A DNA stretch of 49,775 bases from an uncultured Methanosarcinales archaeon (GTDB taxonomy: Archaea; Nanobdellota; Nanobdellia; Woesearchaeales; CAZXZL01): the NCBI GenBank assembly GCA_964645415.1, contig CAZXZL010000001.1:1-49775 (forward strand), written 5' to 3'. Position numbers and translations under genes: made by a program. The notes below the pieces were generated by a model. That model saw only the letters and a program-made list of their open reading frames with translations, searched no databases and was not told the origin of the DNA. Within the stretch, counting starts at the first letter, position 1, and every line of letters begins with the position of its first letter. This document shows positions 1 to 44,645 of the stretch, piece by piece.

Positions 1-2
1 AA

Positions 3-1463
<1,461 letters not shown>

Positions 1464-1522
1464 TTTTATTTTCAAATTTTATCAAACATTAATTAACATT
1501 GTTTGTTGGACTGTTCTTTTTT

Positions 1523-1595
1523 GGGCTTGTAGCTCAACTGGTAGAGCGTCGCCCTTGCAAGGCGAAGGCTCTGGGTTCAAGTCCCAGCAAGTCCA
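1523..1595 (+). tRNA. tRNA-Ala(TGC) in 16S-23S spacer
   Basis: Acceptor GGGCTTG/CAAGTCC-A with G3-U70; anticodon arm TCGCC-CT-TGC-AA-GGCGA; T arm CTGGG-TTCAAGT-CCCAG. Confidence 0.97.
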
Positions 1596-1666
1596 CTCAT
1601 TTTAGCAATGCCACATGTCAATCATGTGGTATGGTGGATCCTAGAATGTGTCATTACTTCATATTC

Positions 1667-1697
1667 AATGAGGGTCGTGCATAAGTAGATGCTATGA
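1667..1697 (+). other. 5' arm of pre-23S processing stem (pairs with 4611-4641)
   Basis: AATGAGGGTCGTGCATAAGTAGATGCTATGA is complementary to TTATAGCATCTACTTATGAATGACCCTTATT (31 positions, one G.A mismatch, three G-U pairs). Confidence 0.9.
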
Positions 1698-1703
1698 TTT
1701 TTT

Positions 1704-4609
<2,906 letters not shown>

Positions 4610-4610
4610 C

Positions 4611-7292: not shown

Positions 7293-7685
7293 ATGAAAGT
7301 TATAAAAGGTATATATGCACTTTGTTTTGAGTTAAAAACTGATTTAAATATAAGAGATTGGAATCTAACTAAAGGTAAATATGTTTATGTTGGTTCTGCT
7401 CAAAATAATCTTTTAAAACGTGTTAAAAGACACATTAAAAAAAATAAAAAGAAACATTGGCATATAGATTATCTTACAACTTTAAATGAGTGTGTTATTA
7501 AAGAAGTCTTTTATTTAGAAAAAAAGAAATTATTTGAAGACGTTATATCATTTATTGTTGGGATTTATGGTGACTCAATAAATAATTTTGGTGCTAGTGA
7601 TTCAAAATATAACTCTCATCTCTTTAGAGTTAAAGATTTTAATTTTTTAGAAAAATATATGTTTATTTTGAATAATAATGACTAA
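7293..7685 (+). CDS. GIY-YIG nuclease family protein (DUF123-like)
   Basis: KGIY...YVYVGSA...RVKRH...HWHIDYL...FGASD...SHLF. Confidence 0.85.
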   Translation: MKVIKGIYALCFELKTDLNIRDWNLTKGKYVYVGSAQNNLLKRVKRHIKKNKKKHWHIDYLTTLNECVIKEVFYLEKKKLFEDVISFIVGIYGDSINNFGASDSKYNSHLFRVKDFNFLEKYMFILNNND

Positions 7686-8766
7686 TCTTTTCTTTTAATT
7701 GATTGAAATTTTCTTCTTCAATTGATTTTCTAATTCTTTTCATTAAATCCATCATAAAATAAATATTATGATATGTTAAATAAATTTGATAAGTATACTC
7801 ATTATTTTTATAAAGATGTCTTAAATAACTTCTTGAATATCTTTTACAAATTTTACACTTACATTCTTCATCTAATGGTTTTTTTGAATATTTATACTCT
7901 GATCTTTTTAAATTATATTTACCTTTCCATGTAAATATAGTTGCATGTCTTGCAATTTTAGTTGGATATATTGAATCAAAAATATCTACTCCTTTATCAA
8001 CTGCTCTTATTATATCAAGTGGATGTCCAATTCCCATCATATATCTTGGCTTATTTTCATCAATCTCTGACAAACATGCTTCTAATAGTTTTTTAGTTAA
8101 ATCTCTATCTTCTCCTATTCTTAATCCACCAATTGAAACACCATCAAAATCTAATGAATTGATATATTTTGCACTTTTCTTTCTTAATTCTTTTTTAAAT
8201 CCACCTTGAGCTATTCCAAATAAAAGTTGATTTGAATCAATTTTATCATGATGTTTTTTACATATCTTTGCCCATTTATGTGTTCTTTCTGTTGATTTTA
8301 TCATCTCTTCTTTTGTATATTTATACAATGGCATATGGTCTAAAACCATTGCTGCATCACTCCCTAATGTATTTTGTATTTCAATTGCTTTTTTTGGAGT
8401 AAGAAAGTGAGATGAACCATCATAAGGACTTTTAAATTTAATTCCATTATCATTTATTTCTTCAAATATTTTTTCCATACTTAAAACTTGAAAACCTCCT
8501 GAATCAGTAAAATTAGATTTTTTCCAGGTAGAGAATTTATGAATCCTGCCATGTTTTTTAATTATATCAAGACCAGGTTTTAAATACATTAATAAAGAAT
8601 TTGAGATAATTGATTGTACTCCAATTTCTTCTAAATCATTCATAGAAAGGAACTTAACAGTTGCTTTTGTTCCAACAGGCATAAAGAATGGTGTATTATA
8701 AGTTCCTGTTTTTGTTGTTAACTTACCTATTCTTCTATTTTTATTTTTTTTAATTAGCTTAAACAT
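7663..8766 (-). CDS. tgt: tRNA-guanine(34) transglycosylase, bacterial-type
   Basis: TPFFMPVGT, DSGGFQVLS, FGIAQGG, PRYMMGIG, DIFD and Zn motif CKCKIC...H; 367 aa with no PUA domain. Confidence 0.93.
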   Translation of the reverse strand: MFKLIKKNKNRRIGKLTTKTGTYNTPFFMPVGTKATVKFLSMNDLEEIGVQSIISNSLLMYLKPGLDIIKKHGRIHKFSTWKKSNFTDSGGFQVLSMEKIFEEINDNGIKFKSPYDGSSHFLTPKKAIEIQNTLGSDAAMVLDHMPLYKYTKEEMIKSTERTHKWAKICKKHHDKIDSNQLLFGIAQGGFKKELRKKSAKYINSLDFDGVSIGGLRIGEDRDLTKKLLEACLSEIDENKPRYMMGIGHPLDIIRAVDKGVDIFDSIYPTKIARHATIFTWKGKYNLKRSEYKYSKKPLDEECKCKICKRYSRSYLRHLYKNNEYTYQIYLTYHNIYFMMDLMKRIRKSIEEENFNQLKEKISHYYSK

Positions 8767-8787
8767 ACTTTTTAAATTTGCTTATTA

Positions 8788-8922
8788 CTTAAATTAGTTT
8801 CCCTCAATTTTTATCAAGATTGACCAGGATGGTACCATTCTAAAGAATGGCACGGGGTTCCTATAGTATTCTATTTATTTCTGATTTTGTTTTTATAAAA
8901 TCCTTTTCTTTAAGATGATTTG
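8788..8922 (-). repeat. Dispersed structured element, core copy a (P1 8832-8853, P2 8804-8823)
   Basis: Minus strand reads boundary motif, TTTATAAA, TAGGAAC, GTGCCATTC-TTTA-GAATGGTAC, TCAATCTT-GATA-AAAATTGA, then a degenerate boundary motif. Strand is my convention. Confidence 0.88.
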
Positions 8923-9050
8923 ATCTCAATTTTTATCAAAATTGGTAAGGATGGTACTATACTTCGTATAGCACGTTAGTTTCTATAATTTTCTAATTAT
9001 TTTTGTTTTCACTTTTATAAACTTCTATTTCTTTTTTTAAGATGATTTTG
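8911..9050 (-). repeat. Dispersed structured element, core copy b (P1 8954-8974, P2 8927-8944), tandem with copy a
   Basis: GTGCTATAC-GAA-GTATAGTAC and CAATTTT-GATA-AAAATTG, bounded by CAAA(A)TCATCTTA motifs. Confidence 0.9.
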
Positions 9051-9061
9051 ATGGACTAACC

Positions 9062-9104
9062 TCGAAGAAGAGAAAACGTAGATGTTTTTCGAAGAAGAGA
9101 TGAT
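9062..9104 (-). repeat. Module C of the element (TCGAAGAAGAGA present twice)
   Basis: Reverse complement of 9062-9083 (ATCTACGTTTTCTCTTCTTCGA) matches 39199-39220 at 21 of 22 nt. Confidence 0.8.
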
Positions 9105-9193
9105 CCTTTATTTATACTTTTATTTTAAATATGAATGTACATCTTTGTTATTTTAAGTTTATTTGTAAATAATGTATAAAAAAAGTTTAAGAT

Positions 9194-9376
9194 ATTCGTT
9201 TTAGCTAAAGAGTATGTATTCGTATAAGTGCAGTGTGTAGGGCAAAAACATCTAAGAGACAAGTAACGATTTGAATTAAACAAAATAAATAGAAATTTAT
9301 AGGAATTACTGTGCCATACGAAGTATGGTACTATCCTGGTCAATCTTGATAAAGATTGAGGGCAAAATCATCTAAG
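9194..9376 (+). repeat. Module B (9194-9256) plus core copy c (P1 9311-9331, P2 9340-9359)
   Basis: AAGTGCAGTGTGTAGGGCAAAAACATCTAAG, then GTGCCATAC-GAA-GTATGGTAC, TCAATCTT-GATA-AAGATTGA and GGGCAAAATCATCTAAG. Confidence 0.9.
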
Positions 9377-9386
9377 AGAATTTGTC

Positions 9387-9406
9387 GACTTTTTTTAAAA
9401 AAAGTC
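9387..9406. terminator. Perfect 20-bp palindrome, possible bidirectional T-tract terminator
   Basis: GAC-T7-A7-GTC gives T7 on both strands; lies between element copy c and the 3' end of the ferredoxin gene. Confidence 0.35.
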
Positions 9407-9487
9407 TCCTTATAATAATTGTAACTGTAATTTTCTAGAAAAAATGGTATGAGAAAGAAAGATAAAAAAAATAAAAAATAAAAAAAT

Positions 9488-9670
9488 CTACTCAATACTA
9501 ATTGCATTTGTTGGACACATATCCTCAGCTTCTTTGTTACAATCAACTTCATCTACTTCTAAACTTTTTGGCTTAGCTTTAGAACCATCTAATTCCCAAT
9601 TATCAGGACAAACAGAAACACATGCACCACATCCTACACAATCATCTTTACTAAAATTTATTTTGACCAT
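9488..9670 (-). CDS. Single-cluster ferredoxin
   Basis: CVGCGACVSVCP...CPTNAI in 60 aa; GAGGTG SD. Confidence 0.9.
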   Translation of the reverse strand: MVKINFSKDDCVGCGACVSVCPDNWELDGSKAKPKSLEVDEVDCNKEAEDMCPTNAISIE

Positions 9671-19843: not shown

Positions 19844-20843
19844 ATGGGTTTCCTTAATAAGTTTAAGTCTATGTTTAGTAAAGTTGGAAGTGGAGATGAT
19901 ATTTATGATTCGCAAGTTCCAACAGTTGATGATTCTTTAATAGGTGATAATGAGGATATTATGAACTCTAATAACTCTAATCGTTCTGAAGAATCTAATT
20001 CTAATAATATTAACAATATTAATAATTTAAATGATATTAATAATTCTAGTAAATCGAATAATAATAATAATAATAATAATAATAACCTTAACAAATCTAA
20101 CAGATCTACTAGTAATAATAATAATAACAATATTAATAACAATAATAACAATAATAATAATAATAATAATAATAATTTTTTAAGTAATTCAAATAAATCA
20201 GACTCTAATGTTAAAAGTAATTCTAATATGTTTAATCATCCAAATAATAACAATAATAACATTAACCAAAACTTAAACTCTTTAGAAGTAATTCCTAATG
20301 CTGCTCCTAAATTGAATTCTAATAAAATAAATAATTCTAATATTCCTAACTTTGGTAAAAATGATGATTCTTTACAAAATAATAATAATAATAATNNNNN
20401 NNNNNNNNNNNNNNNNNNNNNNNNNNNNNNNNNNNNNNNNNNNNNNNNNNNNNNNNNNNNNNNNNNNNNNNNNNNNNNNNNNNNNNNNNNNNNNNAATAA
20501 TAATAATAATAATCAAGCACAATTTAATTCAAGTTTAGCTAAAAGAGATGAAAATAGTCAAAATTCTTTATTTAATGAAAGTTCAGGATATCTTAAAAAT
20601 AATTTATCAAAAAGAAGTATTTACTCAATTAAAACTCCTCTTTATATTGATCTTAACTCATTTGGTAAAGTTTTAGAAGAGATATCTGAAATTGATGATA
20701 CTATTGATGATTTTATTAAAAGTAGTATTAAAGAAAAAGTTGATAAACAAAAAAAATTATATGAGGAATGGATTAATTTAATTGAAGAGACACAAAATAA
20801 TTTTTTAGATGTTGATAGACGTTTTTTTAAAAATCAAAATTAA
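19844..20843 (+). CDS. Poly-Asn protein with C-terminal coiled-coil domain (paralogue 1), spans assembly gap
   Basis: AAT-encoded Asn runs enter and leave the 100-N gap. Joining the two frames is inferred because the gap length is arbitrary. C-terminus PLYIDL...W...VDRRFF. Confidence 0.7.
20058..20513 (+). repeat. (AAT/AAC)n trinucleotide tracts encoding poly-Asn
   Basis: Several runs of 7 or more AAT/AAC codons, two of them flanking the gap. Confidence 0.92.
20396..20495. other. Assembly gap (100 N)
   Basis: Run of N. Confidence 1.
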
Positions 20844-22427: not shown

Positions 22428-22533
22428 ATTAAGAAAGTGTATATTCTCTTTTAAAAGTTTATTTATTAATTAGTATATAGTATATTTTAGTATTATTTTT
22501 GAACTATTTAATCATAATAATAATCATAATAAT

Positions 22534-22633
22534 NNNNNNNNNNNNNNNNNNNNNNNNNNNNNNNNNNNNNNNNNNNNNNNNNNNNNNNNNNNNNNNNNNN
22601 NNNNNNNNNNNNNNNNNNNNNNNNNNNNNNNNN
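22534..22633. other. Assembly gap (100 N)
   Basis: Run of N preceded by AAT/CAT repeats. Confidence 1.
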
Positions 22634-22692
22634 ATTAGATTCATCGTATAAAGAATAACACAAAAATCTAATATTTTGTTTTGATTAGAAAA

Positions 22693-22817
22693 TCCCAACC
22701 CCCGGAATTGAACCGGGAACCTGTCGGTATCGGCTGGTTGTATATCATATATAGCTTAGACACTTTATCAATACAACATCTACAGCCGACCGCTCTACCT
22801 AATTAAGCTAGGTTGGG
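22693..22817 (-). tRNA. tRNA-Tyr(GTA) with 51-nt intron (22729-22779)
   Basis: Acceptor CCCAACC/GGTTGGG-A with archaeal C1-G72; anticodon arm GTCGG-CT-GTA-G^A-CCGAC; T arm CCCGG-TTCAATT-CCGGG. Confidence 0.92.
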
Positions 22818-32563: not shown

Positions 32564-32771
32564 CTTAGATGATTTGCTCACAATCTTTATCACAGCTTTT
32601 ATCAAAGCTGGCAAGGATGGTACCATTCTGAAGAATGGAACTGTAGTTTCTATTAAATTCTATTTCTTTTTGCTTCTTTTTTTATAAGCTTCTTTTTTTC
32701 TTTTCTTTAGATGATTTTGCCCTACACACTGCACACTTAATCGAAGATATATTCTTTAGCTAAACACGAAT
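32564..32771 (-). repeat. Dispersed element locus 2: module B plus core copy d (P1 32620-32641, P2 32593-32610)
   Basis: Minus strand reads GCAGTGTGTAGGGCAAAATCATCTAA, CTTATAAA, GTTCCATTC-TTCA-GAATGGTAC, CAGCTTT-GATA-AAAGCTG and GCAAATCATCTAAG. Confidence 0.9.
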
Positions 32772-32848
32772 AAATATTATACTATTGAACGAATAAGTTT
32801 AAACATTTAAAATTTAAACAATTTAAAAGAATGTACAAATTTTAAAAT

Positions 32849-39160: not shown

Positions 39161-39198
39161 TCATCTTTTTTTTAATATTAGAAAAATGTAAAGATATA

Positions 39199-39478
39199 AT
39201 CTACGTTTTATCTTCTTCGAAAAAAATTATTTTTGTTAAACTAAAGTGTATGTATTCGTATAAGTGCAGTGTGTAGGGCAAAATCATCTAAAAAAAAATA
39301 ATAGGAGCTTATAAAAACAAAAATAGAAACAAATAAAATAATATGGGAACTAACGTGCTATACGAAGTATAGTACCATCCTAACCAATTTCTATTAAATC
39401 TTTGATTTAAAGATTCTAAAAACTTTGTTTTTAGTAATTGATAAAAATTGTGATAAAGATTGTGAGCAAATCATCTAA
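39199..39478 (+). repeat. Dispersed element locus 3: module C, module B and core copy e (P1 39355-39375; P2 with 48-nt insert)
   Basis: ATCTACGTTTTATCTTCTTCGA, TATGTATTCGTATAAGTGCAGTGTGTAGGGCAAAATCATCTAA, GTGCTATAC-GAA-GTATAGTAC and GCAAATCATCTAA. Confidence 0.9.
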
Positions 39479-43161: not shown

Positions 43162-43509
43162 ATTAAATTCACCTCAAAGTTTTTTTTTTATTATCTTATT
43201 TAAAACTTATTAATTTATCCCTTTTTTTAATTAATTCTTTAATTTTAACTTCTTTTTTACTTTATTTTAGTTATTTGGGCTTATTATTTTTTTATATTAT
43301 TTAGTCAAGTTTTTATTTACTATTCATTAAACATTACTAATTTTTTTATATGTTAAAATTGATTATTTCCCTATATAGTACAATATTTATGTTAAAGAAT
43401 TTTTCATATTTAGTATACATTTTTGTATAATAATTTATGAAAAAGAAATATTTATATACTAATATTTTTGTAATCTAATGTTAGTGCTTGTTTAATTTGA
43501 GGTGAGATG

Positions 43510-43619
43510 ATGAAAAAAGGAAATTTAAATTTATCTATTAATTCTATTGTTGTTTTAATTTTAGCTATTACTATGCTTGGGCTTGGACTTGCTTTTATGA
43601 GAAACATTTTTGGAGATGC
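43510..43619 (+). repeat. 110-bp exact direct repeat (second copy 44112-44221)
   Basis: Identical from ATG to GGAGATGC; upstream TAATTTGAGGTGA is also shared. Confidence 0.93.
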
Positions 43620-44097
43620 TATGGAGCAATTTGAAGGAGTTTCTGCAGAAATGGAAACTGAAATGACTGAATCTTTAAGAGATACAAGAGATGATGTTGC
43701 TTTAAATGTTAGAGAAACTAGTGCAGAGATGAGATCTACTTCTAGAATTTATTTAGGTATACAAAATGATAGAAGTGATACTTTATATTATCAATATGAT
43801 ATTTTTGAGAGTGGTCAAGATAACCCTTGTGATTATGAATCTGGAGAAACAGGAGATTGTAAAATTGATTTAGATGTTTTTAATGACGGTTCTGTTGAAG
43901 GAAATGATGTTGAAGTAATTCCTATTACTTTTGAACCTGACTTTGATGAAGAAAATGAAGATCTTGATAATCAAGGATATACTTTATTTGTATGTGAAGC
44001 AGATGATCGAGATGATCTTCCAAGTCAATGTCATCCTAGTGAGGATTTAGATAATTCTCATATTCATGGTATTGTAAACTTTTATGTTACTGTATAA
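43510..44097 (+). CDS. Type IV pilin-like protein 1
   Basis: Class III signal peptide MKKG^NLNLSINSIVVLILAITMLGLGL; acidic beta-rich body. Confidence 0.8.
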   Translation: MKKGNLNLSINSIVVLILAITMLGLGLAFMRNIFGDAMEQFEGVSAEMETEMTESLRDTRDDVALNVRETSAEMRSTSRIYLGIQNDRSDTLYYQYDIFESGQDNPCDYESGETGDCKIDLDVFNDGSVEGNDVEVIPITFEPDFDEENEDLDNQGYTLFVCEADDRDDLPSQCHPSEDLDNSHIHGIVNFYVTV

Positions 44098-44111
44098 TTT
44101 GAGGTGAAATA

Positions 44112-44645
44112 ATGAAAAAAGGAAATTTAAATTTATCTATTAATTCTATTGTTGTTTTAATTTTAGCTATTACTATGCTTGGGCTTGGACTTGCTTTTAT
44201 GAGAAACATTTTTGGAGATGCAACTGAGCAATTTGAAACAGTTAGTGAAGAGATGCAAACAGAAATGGCTGATCAAATGAAAGATGCAAGAGAACCTGTT
44301 GATTTAAACATTCATAGGGTAGAATTAGGTGAAAATGAAGAAGAAACGATATATATGGGTGTTAGAAATGATCGAGGTTCACAAAGAGAATTTAGAATTC
44401 CTACTTGGGATGATTTAGGAGAAGAAGATGATTTTCAATGTCGAGGAGATAGTGATGTGATTAATATAAATTATCCTGAGGGTGAAAGATGGATTGATGG
44501 AGATGAAGTTGATGTTTTACCGGTTAGAATTGAAGGGGTAGGATCTGGTACTTGTAGAGTTAGATTCTTTGCAGAAAAAGGAGATGAAGATGGTACTGAA
44601 TTTAATCGAATTGGTTCAAGAACAGTTTATATTGAAGTTTCTTAA
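44112..44645 (+). CDS. Type IV pilin-like protein 2
   Basis: Same class III signal peptide; divergent acidic body. Confidence 0.8.
   Translation: MKKGNLNLSINSIVVLILAITMLGLGLAFMRNIFGDATEQFETVSEEMQTEMADQMKDAREPVDLNIHRVELGENEEETIYMGVRNDRGSQREFRIPTWDDLGEEDDFQCRGDSDVININYPEGERWIDGDEVDVLPVRIEGVGSGTCRVRFFAEKGDEDGTEFNRIGSRTVYIEVS

Follow-up and report, generated by a model that had tools for sequence, protein, structure and literature searches.

Repetitive extragenic palindromes (REP) and the bacterial interspersed mosaic elements (BIMEs) are abundant, intergenic, strand-specific imperfect palindromes, found as mosaics of module types and in inverted pairs, and their partner is a transposase of the Y1 type, the REP-associated tyrosine transposase (RAYT). 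The chemistry of RAYT enzymes and of the insertion sequences (IS) IS200/IS605 does not duplicate the target, and IS200/IS605 elements insert 3′ of a target of 4-5 nt. The archaeal miniature inverted-repeat transposable elements (MITEs) SM1-SM4 of Sulfolobus are short, non-autonomous, multicopy and intergenic, and they do duplicate their target. The pneumococcal BOX element has the build boxA-boxB(n)-boxC, with variable internal modules and predicted stable hairpins. Repeated DNA is thought to be scarce in archaea whose genomes are very small. In this work we describe a family of two-hairpin units, here called Y units, found in a 49,775-nt stretch of archaeal DNA (contig CAZXZL010000001.1 of assembly GCA_964645415.1; hereafter the window, which is contig C1 of the genome that we label G000). 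All positions are window coordinates unless another contig is named. One structured repeat family without genes makes up some 2-3% of this 0.96 Mb genome, and searches for a transposase, integrase or reverse transcriptase to go with it gave nothing recognisable. The family has the look of a mobile element of a kind not yet described, one that carries no genes. We see about an even chance that it is a non-autonomous insertion element that carries no gene, duplicates its target, and has burst in G000 by repeated insertion at a target that is renewed each time.

The units are like MITEs in being short, gene-less, multicopy, intergenic and flanked by duplications, but they lack terminal inverted repeats (the consensus fold of nine full units has P1 and P2 alone, and the unit ends do not pair), their duplications span 10-21 nt instead of one fixed length, and no parent IS was found for them (one DDE family was searched, and there was no multicopy coding repeat); they would also differ in stacking at a self-renewing target. 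With REP/BIME and IS200/IS605-derived palindromes they share an intergenic position, strand-specific palindromes and mosaics of modules, but the host is an archaeon without a Y1/HUH transposase or TnpB, the arrays run head-to-tail, and the direct repeats measure 13-21 nt. BOX elements offer a similar modular build, with constant ends, a variable number of internal modules, and hairpins; their sequence and host are unrelated, and they have neither genome-wide head-to-tail arrays on what appears to be a self-renewing target nor a promoter-like box in each unit. Archaeal bulge-helix-bulge introns differ from the G000 arrays, which are intergenic, although related modules in relatives do lie inside tRNA-Leu and tRNA-Val genes. 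A literature search gave no description of such arrays, or of the tRNA-linked modules that we report below from related genomes.

Results and discussion

A unit between direct repeats, and a site without it

Copy c of the family (9260-9358, plus strand) is a 99-nt piece flanked by 21-nt direct repeats at 9239-9259 (AGGGCAAAAACATCTAAGAGA) and 9359-9379 (AGGGCAAAATCATCTAAGAGA, plus strand), which are identical at 20 of 21 positions. The insert comprises a leader, hairpin P1 at 9311-9331 (CCATAC/GTATGG, loop GAA), a linker at 9332-9339 and hairpin P2 at 9340-9359, the stem of which is CAATCTT/AAGATTG. It is matched at 9293-9366(+) with an E-value of 1.7e-18 by R1, a full-unit covariance model of the family. 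On its 5′ side lies the leader of the plus-strand array, of a type that we call X (9196-9259, plus strand; ATTCGTTTTAGCTAAAG..GTGCAGTGTGT), which ends in the first direct repeat. The second repeat is followed by a terminal module T (9380-9421, plus strand), comprising, in this order, TTGTCGAC, a hairpin GACTTTTTTT/AAAAAAAGTC that has a T7 run, and TCTCCTTATAATAA. When this filled site is compared with contig C35 (4040-4175), we see that the X leader, one tail and the T hairpin module adjoin there with no Y unit between them, and contigs C40 and C8 are alike in this. The X leader also aligns with this paralogous C35 site, and the stretch 9200-9262 matches 39236-39298 at 89% (repeat family D12).

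We propose a mechanism in which each insertion would duplicate 10-21 nt of its target. The preferred target in G000 would be the 13-21 nt tail ..GGGCAAAATCATCTAAGAGA that the X repeat carries. Arrays would be head-to-tail because every insertion would rebuild this tail, so that later insertions could stack behind it in the same orientation. The conserved business end would consist of a P1 whose apex is of the CGAAG type, the invariant linker ATCCTG, and a P2 whose apex is CTTGATAAAG. The forward strand would probably be recognised in a folded, single-stranded form, as RNA or as single-stranded DNA, because the stems covary, the letters of linker and loop do not change, and the third P1 pair forms a G·U wobble on the forward strand only. 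Judging from the TATA-like box that most units bear, they would probably be transcribed.

Covarying stems around invariant letters

Covariation was assessed in an alignment of 24 short-form copies from across the genome (408 cells), using 500 shuffles as a control. Of these cells, 93.4% pair, compared to 35-48.5% with slid partners, and seven pairs are altered on both sides, in 37 cells. The observed pairing, cell count and covariation score were each reached by none of the 500 shuffles; the number of covarying pairs was reached by 49 and the number of further pair types by 474. The linker CATCCT is unchanged in all 24 copies, as is the loop GATAAA (24/24). The original prediction, made from the letters of the window, had claimed a structured non-coding element with compensatory changes in both stems, and these changes are confirmed here, as are the P1 stems with loops GAA, TTTA and TTCA and the P2 stems with a GATA loop. 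It had also described a constant non-Watson-Crick third pair in P1. This pair is indeed G·T in four of the five window copies, and G·U (G·T) in 21 of the 24 aligned copies, but copy d has T·T.

The conserved G·U in P1 favours the forward strand, as far as can be judged from sequence. Six C·A/A·C cells would read as G·U on the reverse strand, so the wobble evidence comes mainly from the one conserved position. No known family had been recognised at the outset, and Rfam 15 agrees: a scan of the whole window gave only archaeal SSU and LSU rRNA and four tRNAs, and a scan of 8700-9500 with E-values up to 10 gave three matches, all with E of at least 4.1 and scores far under gathering.

Anatomy of the unit and of its window copies

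Read on its forward strand, a unit comprises an A-rich stretch, a TATA-like octamer, a conserved leader AAAGAAATAGAAT..TATAGGAAC, P1, the linker, P2 and a tail. P1 is a 9-bp stem (GTGCCATAC/GTATGGTAC), and P2 in the short form has 7 bp and a GATA loop. The tail is GAG(G/A)(G/T)CAAA(A)TCATCTAA, of which 13-21 nt, CAAAATCATCTAA, are also found 5′ of the unit as the direct repeat. The P2 loop is a hot spot for inserts. In long forms it holds inserts of 45 to ~190 nt that consist of further small hairpin modules, and the stems around them still match (CAAATT..AATTTG, CAGCTT..AAGCTG, CAACTT..AAGTTG). All units within an array are head-to-tail. Arrays start with an X leader of degenerate motifs (TATTCGTnTTAGCTAAAG, TCTTCTTCGAA, GTAGAAATC or GTAGGGC) that itself ends in a tail, and a truncated next unit, of which in many cases only the 5′ part is retained, is frequent at array ends. 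Tandem 12-nt copies of the 3′ half of P2 only (TGATAAAGATTG) occur behind complete P2s, as in window copy d. Among 55 parsed copies, the types of P1 and P2 combine freely.

The original prediction had placed five copies at three loci in the window, and all five are found on the strands that it gave, as judged from R1 placement, repeat families and a reading of the sequence. A repeat search of the window joins them through the direct families D6, D7, D11 and D12 and the inverted families I1, I2, I7, I8 and I11. Copy a (8788-8922, minus strand) has a TATA-like box, a leader, P1 CCATTC/GAATGG with loop TTTA, the linker ATCCTGG, a P2 with a single C·A mismatch, and a decayed tail (R1 match 8797-8870(-), E 7.5e-15; families D6, D7, I7). 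It is the final unit of a minus-strand array, and the start of an open reading frame (ORF) at 7663-8766(-) lies directly downstream. Copy b (8911-9036, minus strand) likewise has the box and leader, with P1 CTATAC/GTATAG and loop GAA, the linker, P2 CAATTTT/AAAATTG and the tail CAAATCATCTTAA; its R1 match (8919-8992(-), E 2.5e-19; families I1, I2) is the best genome-wide. The X-type leader of this array (9037-9105, minus strand) contains degenerate TCTTCTTCGA motifs and has at its end CCATCAAAATCATCTTAA, the motif of the tail or direct repeat, and its module (..TCTTCTTCGAAGTTAGTCCATCAAAATCATCTAA) is found again on many contigs.

At the second locus, copy d (32565-32706, minus strand; R1 match 32585-32659(-), E 6.5e-17; families I8, D6) comprises a TATA-like box, a leader, P1 CCATTC/GAATGG with loop TTCA, and P2 CAGCTTT/AAAGCTG, with a 12-nt partial copy of another P2 type between P2 and tail. 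Its X leader (32707-32775, minus strand) ends in GTGTAGGGCAAAATCATCTAA and belongs to family I11, in which 32701-32734 matches 39264-39297 at 97%. At the third locus, an X leader (39197-39291, plus strand; ATCTACGTTTTATCTTCTTCGA .. GTGCAGTGTGTAGGGCAAAATCATCTAA; families D12, I11) precedes the long-form copy e (39292-39478, plus strand; R1 match 39337-39412(+), E 2.7e-11; families I1, I8, D11). This copy has the TATA box TTATAAAA, a leader, P1 CTATAC/GTATAG with loop GAA, the linker, and a P2 whose loop encloses two extra hairpin modules, followed by a partial P2 copy and the tail. The head-to-head divergent layout seen at the first locus, with minus-strand units on the left and a plus-strand X leader and Y unit on the right, occurs at no fewer than four loci (C1:8789-9380, C25:1-666, C22:14838-15520 and C4:9843-10410).

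Are the units genes for small RNAs?

It is possible, though we consider it doubtful, that the units instead form a family of functional small structured RNAs of ~90-300 nt, each with its own promoter and composed of P1, an AUCCUG linker and P2, that act in trans, either bound by a protein or by base pairing of their invariant unpaired letters; their multiplicity would then serve dosage, or diversification of a variable P2 domain. In 43 of 64 copies a TATA-like octamer does precede P1 at a distance of 36-52 nt (in 31 as the exact TTATAAAA); purines make up 80% of the 8 nt before this octamer, and it is similar to the aaaa-TTTATAWAT boxes upstream of tRNA genes in G000. The forward-strand wobble (21/24), the covarying stems around an invariant linker ATCCT and loop GATAAA (24/24, and also across six genomes), and the closing of P2 around inserts of 45 to ~190 nt, in the manner of expansion segments, all fit an RNA. 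Other features do not. A T5 run follows the tail within 40 nt in only 7 of 80 cases, the T-rich strand being the reverse one, so that the forward strand shows no terminators. RNAalifold predicts no structure beyond P1 and P2 and no pairing between leader and tail, and the tail, linker, leader and P2 loop have no complementarity to 16S or 23S rRNA in runs longer than 9-10 pairs, G·U included. Truncated units and partial P2 copies are frequent, the full model is absent from 60 genomes of the order, and the patchy, low-copy relatives are insertions with target duplications, unlike a conserved RNA gene. If the units do prove to be expressed small RNAs, they would rank, for the size of the genome, among the largest families of small-RNA genes of any archaeon.

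Some narrower RNA or coding assignments were tried and rejected. A C/D box sRNA on the reverse strand was considered for the C-box-like tail UAGAUGAUUU, but CUGA is found in copy a only and not in b-e. A candidate enclosing helix AGGA/UCCU around P1 is unsupported, with one pair broken in 13 of 24 copies and no covariation (boundaries were viewed by eye, with no dedicated bulge-helix-bulge scan). A small ORF (ATG GTA CCA .. ATC ATC TAA) is open in copy c, but its ATG is lost in CTATAC/GTATAG variants and its frame is broken in tails one A shorter. A type III toxin-antitoxin RNA repeat array, which would immediately precede a single conserved toxin gene, was also rejected, as the neighbours are unrelated genes in all orientations.

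Copy number and genomic context

The assembly comprises 961,391 bases in 79 contigs, with ~25% G+C and a stated marker completeness of 100%. The count of five copies at three loci holds within the window, but genome-wide we find 79 unit copies with nhmmer and 74 with R1. The 78 blocks with family marker motifs amount to 20,672 nt, or ~2.2% of the assembly, and in a self-BLAST the blocks repeated at least five times make up 2.86%. Of 158 contig ends, 46 lie within 120 nt of a family block. The locus is listed for three public DNA runs from one soda-lake metagenome study and for no RNA run. In these three runs, contigs stop inside the array, the contig joints seen there stem from paralogous copies, and the summed read depth within the array climbs from ~21 up to 563 (run X1). 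Because both the assembly and the run contigs break within arrays, the true copy number is probably above the assembled count.

Blocks show no preference among tandem, convergent and divergent intergenic regions. Once six lysine-rich coding low-complexity blocks and sides without an ORF are excluded, 21 downstream genes are co-oriented with the block and 25 are convergent, and on this count a promoter cassette for downstream genes was rejected. The sequence CAAAATCATCTAAGAAAAAGAAATC, identical to the repeat tail together with the first letters of the unit that follows, also occurs exactly inside genes for lysine/serine-rich low-complexity proteins (C4:22895, C4:30242, C12:29-203, C19:8550-8700 and C42:1314 of the G000 assembly); this may reflect chance in AT-rich low-complexity DNA or a common origin.

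The conserved core in other genomes of the order

Relatives were sought with patterns in 401 genomes of the same order and in 248 genomes from other orders of the class; the genomes scanned include three unpublished ones (G112, G335, G273), on which no claim is based. A scan for further copies, as the original prediction had suggested, gave the 74 matches within G000, but the full-unit model matched nothing in 60 other genomes of the order. A BLAST search of 8780-9420 against 400 genomes of the order returned two 30-nt matches at 93%, both in the linker-P2 region (G284, G389), and otherwise only short AT-rich chance matches. The pattern ATCCTNNYCANNYTKGATAAANNNTG occurs among the 401 genomes 26 times in G000, twice each in G180 and G233, and once each in G284 and G389, and a reversed-pattern control gave none in all 401. 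With two mismatches allowed, one additional genome of the order matches (G034), and none of the 248 from other orders does. The specific patterns gave no match in metagenome or viral contigs. A looser pattern, ATRGTACYATCCTNNYCAA, was discarded, giving at least 110 single chance matches in genome contigs and 69 in viral contigs; among its 179 loci, two pass a loose regular expression with three substitutions, neither with the family P1.

The linker-plus-P2 core ATCCTG..CAAnCTTGATAAAGnTTG is common letter for letter to G000, G284, G389, G180, G233 and G034, and is present at one or two copies per genome in the five relatives. Across these six genomes (11 sequences) the letters of linker and loop are unchanged, and 93.5% of P2 cells are paired, with four pairs altered on both sides and none of 500 shuffles reaching the observed pairing. 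Stems in the relatives include CAACCTT/AAGGTTG, GAACCTT/AAGGTTC and CAAGCTT/AAGATTG. A P1-like hairpin stands 5′ of the linker in copies from G284, G180, G034 and G389, and a CGAAG-type apex is seen on it in G284, in G389 and in two of three G180 copies. In the best-supported account, that of a gene-less insertion element, the conserved 3′ module (P1, linker and P2) is old within this order.

Insertions at tRNA genes in relatives

Where flanks are readable in relatives, the core lies mostly beside tRNA genes, between direct repeats of 10-17 nt of target. Four copies are so placed, and for three of these the repeat is a tRNA gene end; duplication lengths seen overall are 10, 13, 14, 17 and 21 nt. 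In G389 the element stands behind tRNA-Val; a repeat of the final 13 nt of the tRNA region (GGGTGGACCCATA) is found 105 nt further on, and after this repeat comes a second module. G233 has two modules 5′ of a tRNA on its contig 3, each followed by TTGCCTCTGTAGCT, the 5′ end of the tRNA, and a ~75-nt module flanked by GCGGGGCTAT on its contig 1. In G034 the 3′ end of tRNA-Cys and its T-run (CCCTGCGCTTTTTTTTA) recur past a 68-nt module at 16 of 17 positions. The orthologous tRNA-Val site, filled behind the tRNA in G389, is empty in G360, a member of the same genus. Across four genomes of this genus the locus is variable: the G360 gene has two introns, that of G287 has a T-loop intron, and in G233 a core that has diverged lies on the opposite side.

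The genus of G233 and G389 also has a larger family, with the module GAYGC-loop-GCRTC-GCGACyG(m)AAGGAGCATG and a companion hairpin motif (pattern GGNNNNNNCCGTTNACAC) found eight times in G389 and twice in G233. In G389 this larger element abuts the 5′ ends of several tRNAs. Compared with an intact G389 copy, the tRNA-Leu of G233 has inserts in the D-loop and the T-loop, the latter holding the larger-family module. On contigs 11, 12 and 13 of G389 we also observed a ~60-nt two-hairpin module (GAYGC-loop-GCRTC, CGACCAAnGGGAGGCTG, GTGTnAACGG-loop-CCGTT) 5′ of tRNA-Glu, tRNA-Met and tRNA-Ala; because it directly abuts the tRNA 5′ ends, it would belong to the pre-tRNA leader. An Rfam search of six loci from relatives gave tRNA matches only.

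The family core connects G000 to these small insertions that duplicate tRNA gene ends in related genomes. The modules of the relatives are, like the G000 units, short and gene-less, with hairpins, target direct repeats (of 10-17 nt) and tandem stacking behind one target. They differ in occurring at one or two copies rather than 74-79 and in using tRNA ends as target, where G000 would use the tail of the X repeat. The G000 units, for their part, are strongly AT-rich, with a TATA-like box and an A-rich leader. It is conceivable, if unlikely, that the two-hairpin module of G000 is the free-living form of a selfish element seen in relatives as a leader, trailer or non-canonical intron of tRNA genes, which would spread via a folded single-stranded intermediate, as RNA or single-stranded DNA, by means of a host or other enzyme and with a target duplication of 10-21 nt, and would have escaped in G000 with its own promoter to be amplified ~75-fold. 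If this were true, the element would give a direct handle on the arrival of archaeal tRNA introns.

The origin of these introns, and of duplicated tRNA ends, is an open question. One published account (PMC3293823) explains direct repeats of tRNA ends by archaeal virus or plasmid integration of the SSV and pNOB8 type, through which tRNA introns and fragments may also arise. In a 2026 preprint on introns of Asgard tRNAs, the way in which introns arrive is said to be a matter that 'remains open' (10.64898/2026.10.13.758758). The relatives' element resembles such integration (PMC3293823) in standing at tRNA ends, with the tRNA terminus directly repeated on either side, and one genus has related modules inside tRNA genes, at D-loop and T-loop positions. 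It differs in that the inserts are ~70-190 nt long and without an integrase, G000 has no Phage_integrase match, and the same core is found at differing targets, which is incompatible with a single attP.

Five intron-bearing tRNA genes of G000 were read, and none contains the core. The tRNA-Tyr gene at 22693-22817(-) has an intron of ~50 nt with TTGATAAAG, the same letters as the apex of the family P2. Introns of tRNA-Trp, tRNA-Met and tRNA-Leu in G000 (C30:5076-5196, C44:136-259 and C28:7592-7721) have AGATGATG-type box motifs, like C/D guide RNAs.

Insertion or growth in place?

Several observations weigh against the account by insertion at a renewed target. The empty site on C35 is a paralogue, and a deletion between two tails would look identical. 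In a periodic array, a direct repeat is indistinguishable from the repeat period. An empty site orthologous to the window loci, which the original prediction had looked towards, was not found because no close relative of G000 is among the genomes searched, G000 being the sole member of its family there. R1 scores the relatives weakly (E 1e-4 for G284, 0.046 for G389), the similarity to them spans only ~26-30 nt plus the P1-like hairpin, and P2 has a mismatch at its middle in three of eight relatives' copies. Covariation among paralogues can also arise by correction of palindromes at the DNA level, and our covariation count takes related copies more than once. The link with tRNA genes in G000 itself is a weak association, as a block is found within 300 nt of 6 of the 40 tRNAs, where random placement gives 2.5 on average and at least 6 in 4.6% of draws. 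Finally, no enzyme was found in the 79 contigs of G000 (stated completeness 100%): there is no match to Y1_Tnp (PF01797) or the TnpB zinc ribbon (PF07282), none to Phage_integrase or Cas1, none to RVT_1 (PF00078; the reverse transcriptase search covered G000 only), none to DDE_Tnp_1 (PF01609), the sole DDE family searched, and no long, high-identity multicopy coding repeat.

Since the direct repeat is inseparable from the array period, tandem duplication or unequal crossing-over could build arrays without transposition. The arrays could on this account have grown in place from an immobile repeat, by these processes and gene conversion, and might be kept as DNA-level sites such as protein-binding sites or promoter cassettes, the direct repeats being then no more than the array period; we consider this quite unlikely. 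The strict head-to-tail order agrees with it, and the shuffling of P1 and P2 types that lie only 8 nt apart points to conversion or recombination as frequent events. Divergent double arrays recur as wholes on different contigs (C25:36-640 and C22:14854-15492 match at 75.6% over 652 nt), and no transposase was found in G000. Growth in place does not account for ~78 separate intergenic blocks, for single insertions between duplicated tRNA ends elsewhere, or for filled and empty states of an orthologous site within one genus, and a DNA site for a dimeric protein is not expected to tolerate compensatory changes in its stems.

Candidate enzymes

No enzyme candidate common to all core carriers was found among those searched. 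Y1_Tnp is present in two of four core-carrying relatives (G389 and G180) and absent from G233 and G284, and Cas1 is found in none of five core carriers. Matches to the Phage_integrase family, of the size of a housekeeping recombinase, occur in all four core-carrying relatives tested (112-160 bits). The G000 assembly has no recombinase of this (Xer-type) family.

The original prediction had offered, as its second hypothesis, hairpin substrates in single-stranded DNA for a trans-acting HUH (Y1) transposase, making the family an archaeal analogue of REP/BIME and RAYT or a set of IS200/IS605-derived palindromes. The strand-specific hairpins with their conserved G·T mismatch and C-GAA-G apex, the several hairpin modules combined in mosaics as in BIMEs, and the Y1_Tnp genes of G389 and G180 would suit such a system. 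We nevertheless regard it as highly improbable and as the least supported of the rivals: neither Y1_Tnp nor TnpB is found in G000, two core-carrying relatives also lack Y1_Tnp, and both the G000 units and the relatives' copies have direct repeats, of 10-21 nt overall (13-21 nt in G000), with units head-to-tail and not in inverted pairs. In short, the multicopy, structured and non-coding nature of the element is supported, and its interpretation as a HUH or REP substrate is not.

A retroposon mediated by RNA, similar to a short interspersed nuclear element (SINE), would be transcribed and then copied at a nicked target by a reverse transcriptase bound to its 3′ hairpins, leaving duplications of variable length and truncated copies. 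Target duplications that vary from 10 to 21 nt are a likeness to SINEs, and the conserved 3′ module with variable 5′ parts across genomes, the TATA-like box of most G000 units and the tandem 12-nt copies that contain the 3′ end of P2 and nothing else point the same way. We think it very unlikely, however, as G000 has no RVT_1 match, the A-rich tract is 5′ and not 3′ of the unit, and many arrays also end in units of which the 5′ part alone is left.

Under the insertion reading that we favour, G000 is a natural place to seek both the intermediate and the enzyme. It offers many junctions, as the element is abundant, with promoter-like boxes and a defined target of 13-21 nt.

Other features of the window

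Long asparagine-rich coding repeats of the (AAT)n type, with a 9-nt period, lie at 19988-20513 and 22447-22648, and a short run of N is present at about 20395-20400. A 218-nt direct repeat with no relation to the hairpin family (D3; 43489-43706 and 44091-44308, 88%, spacing 602 nt) is found towards the 3′ end. At the opposite end, positions 1-4610 hold a full archaeal rRNA operon, with 16S rRNA at 2-1463, a spacer tRNA-Ala at 1523-1596 and 23S rRNA at 1691-4610, and these rRNAs match the archaeal SSU and LSU models of Rfam.

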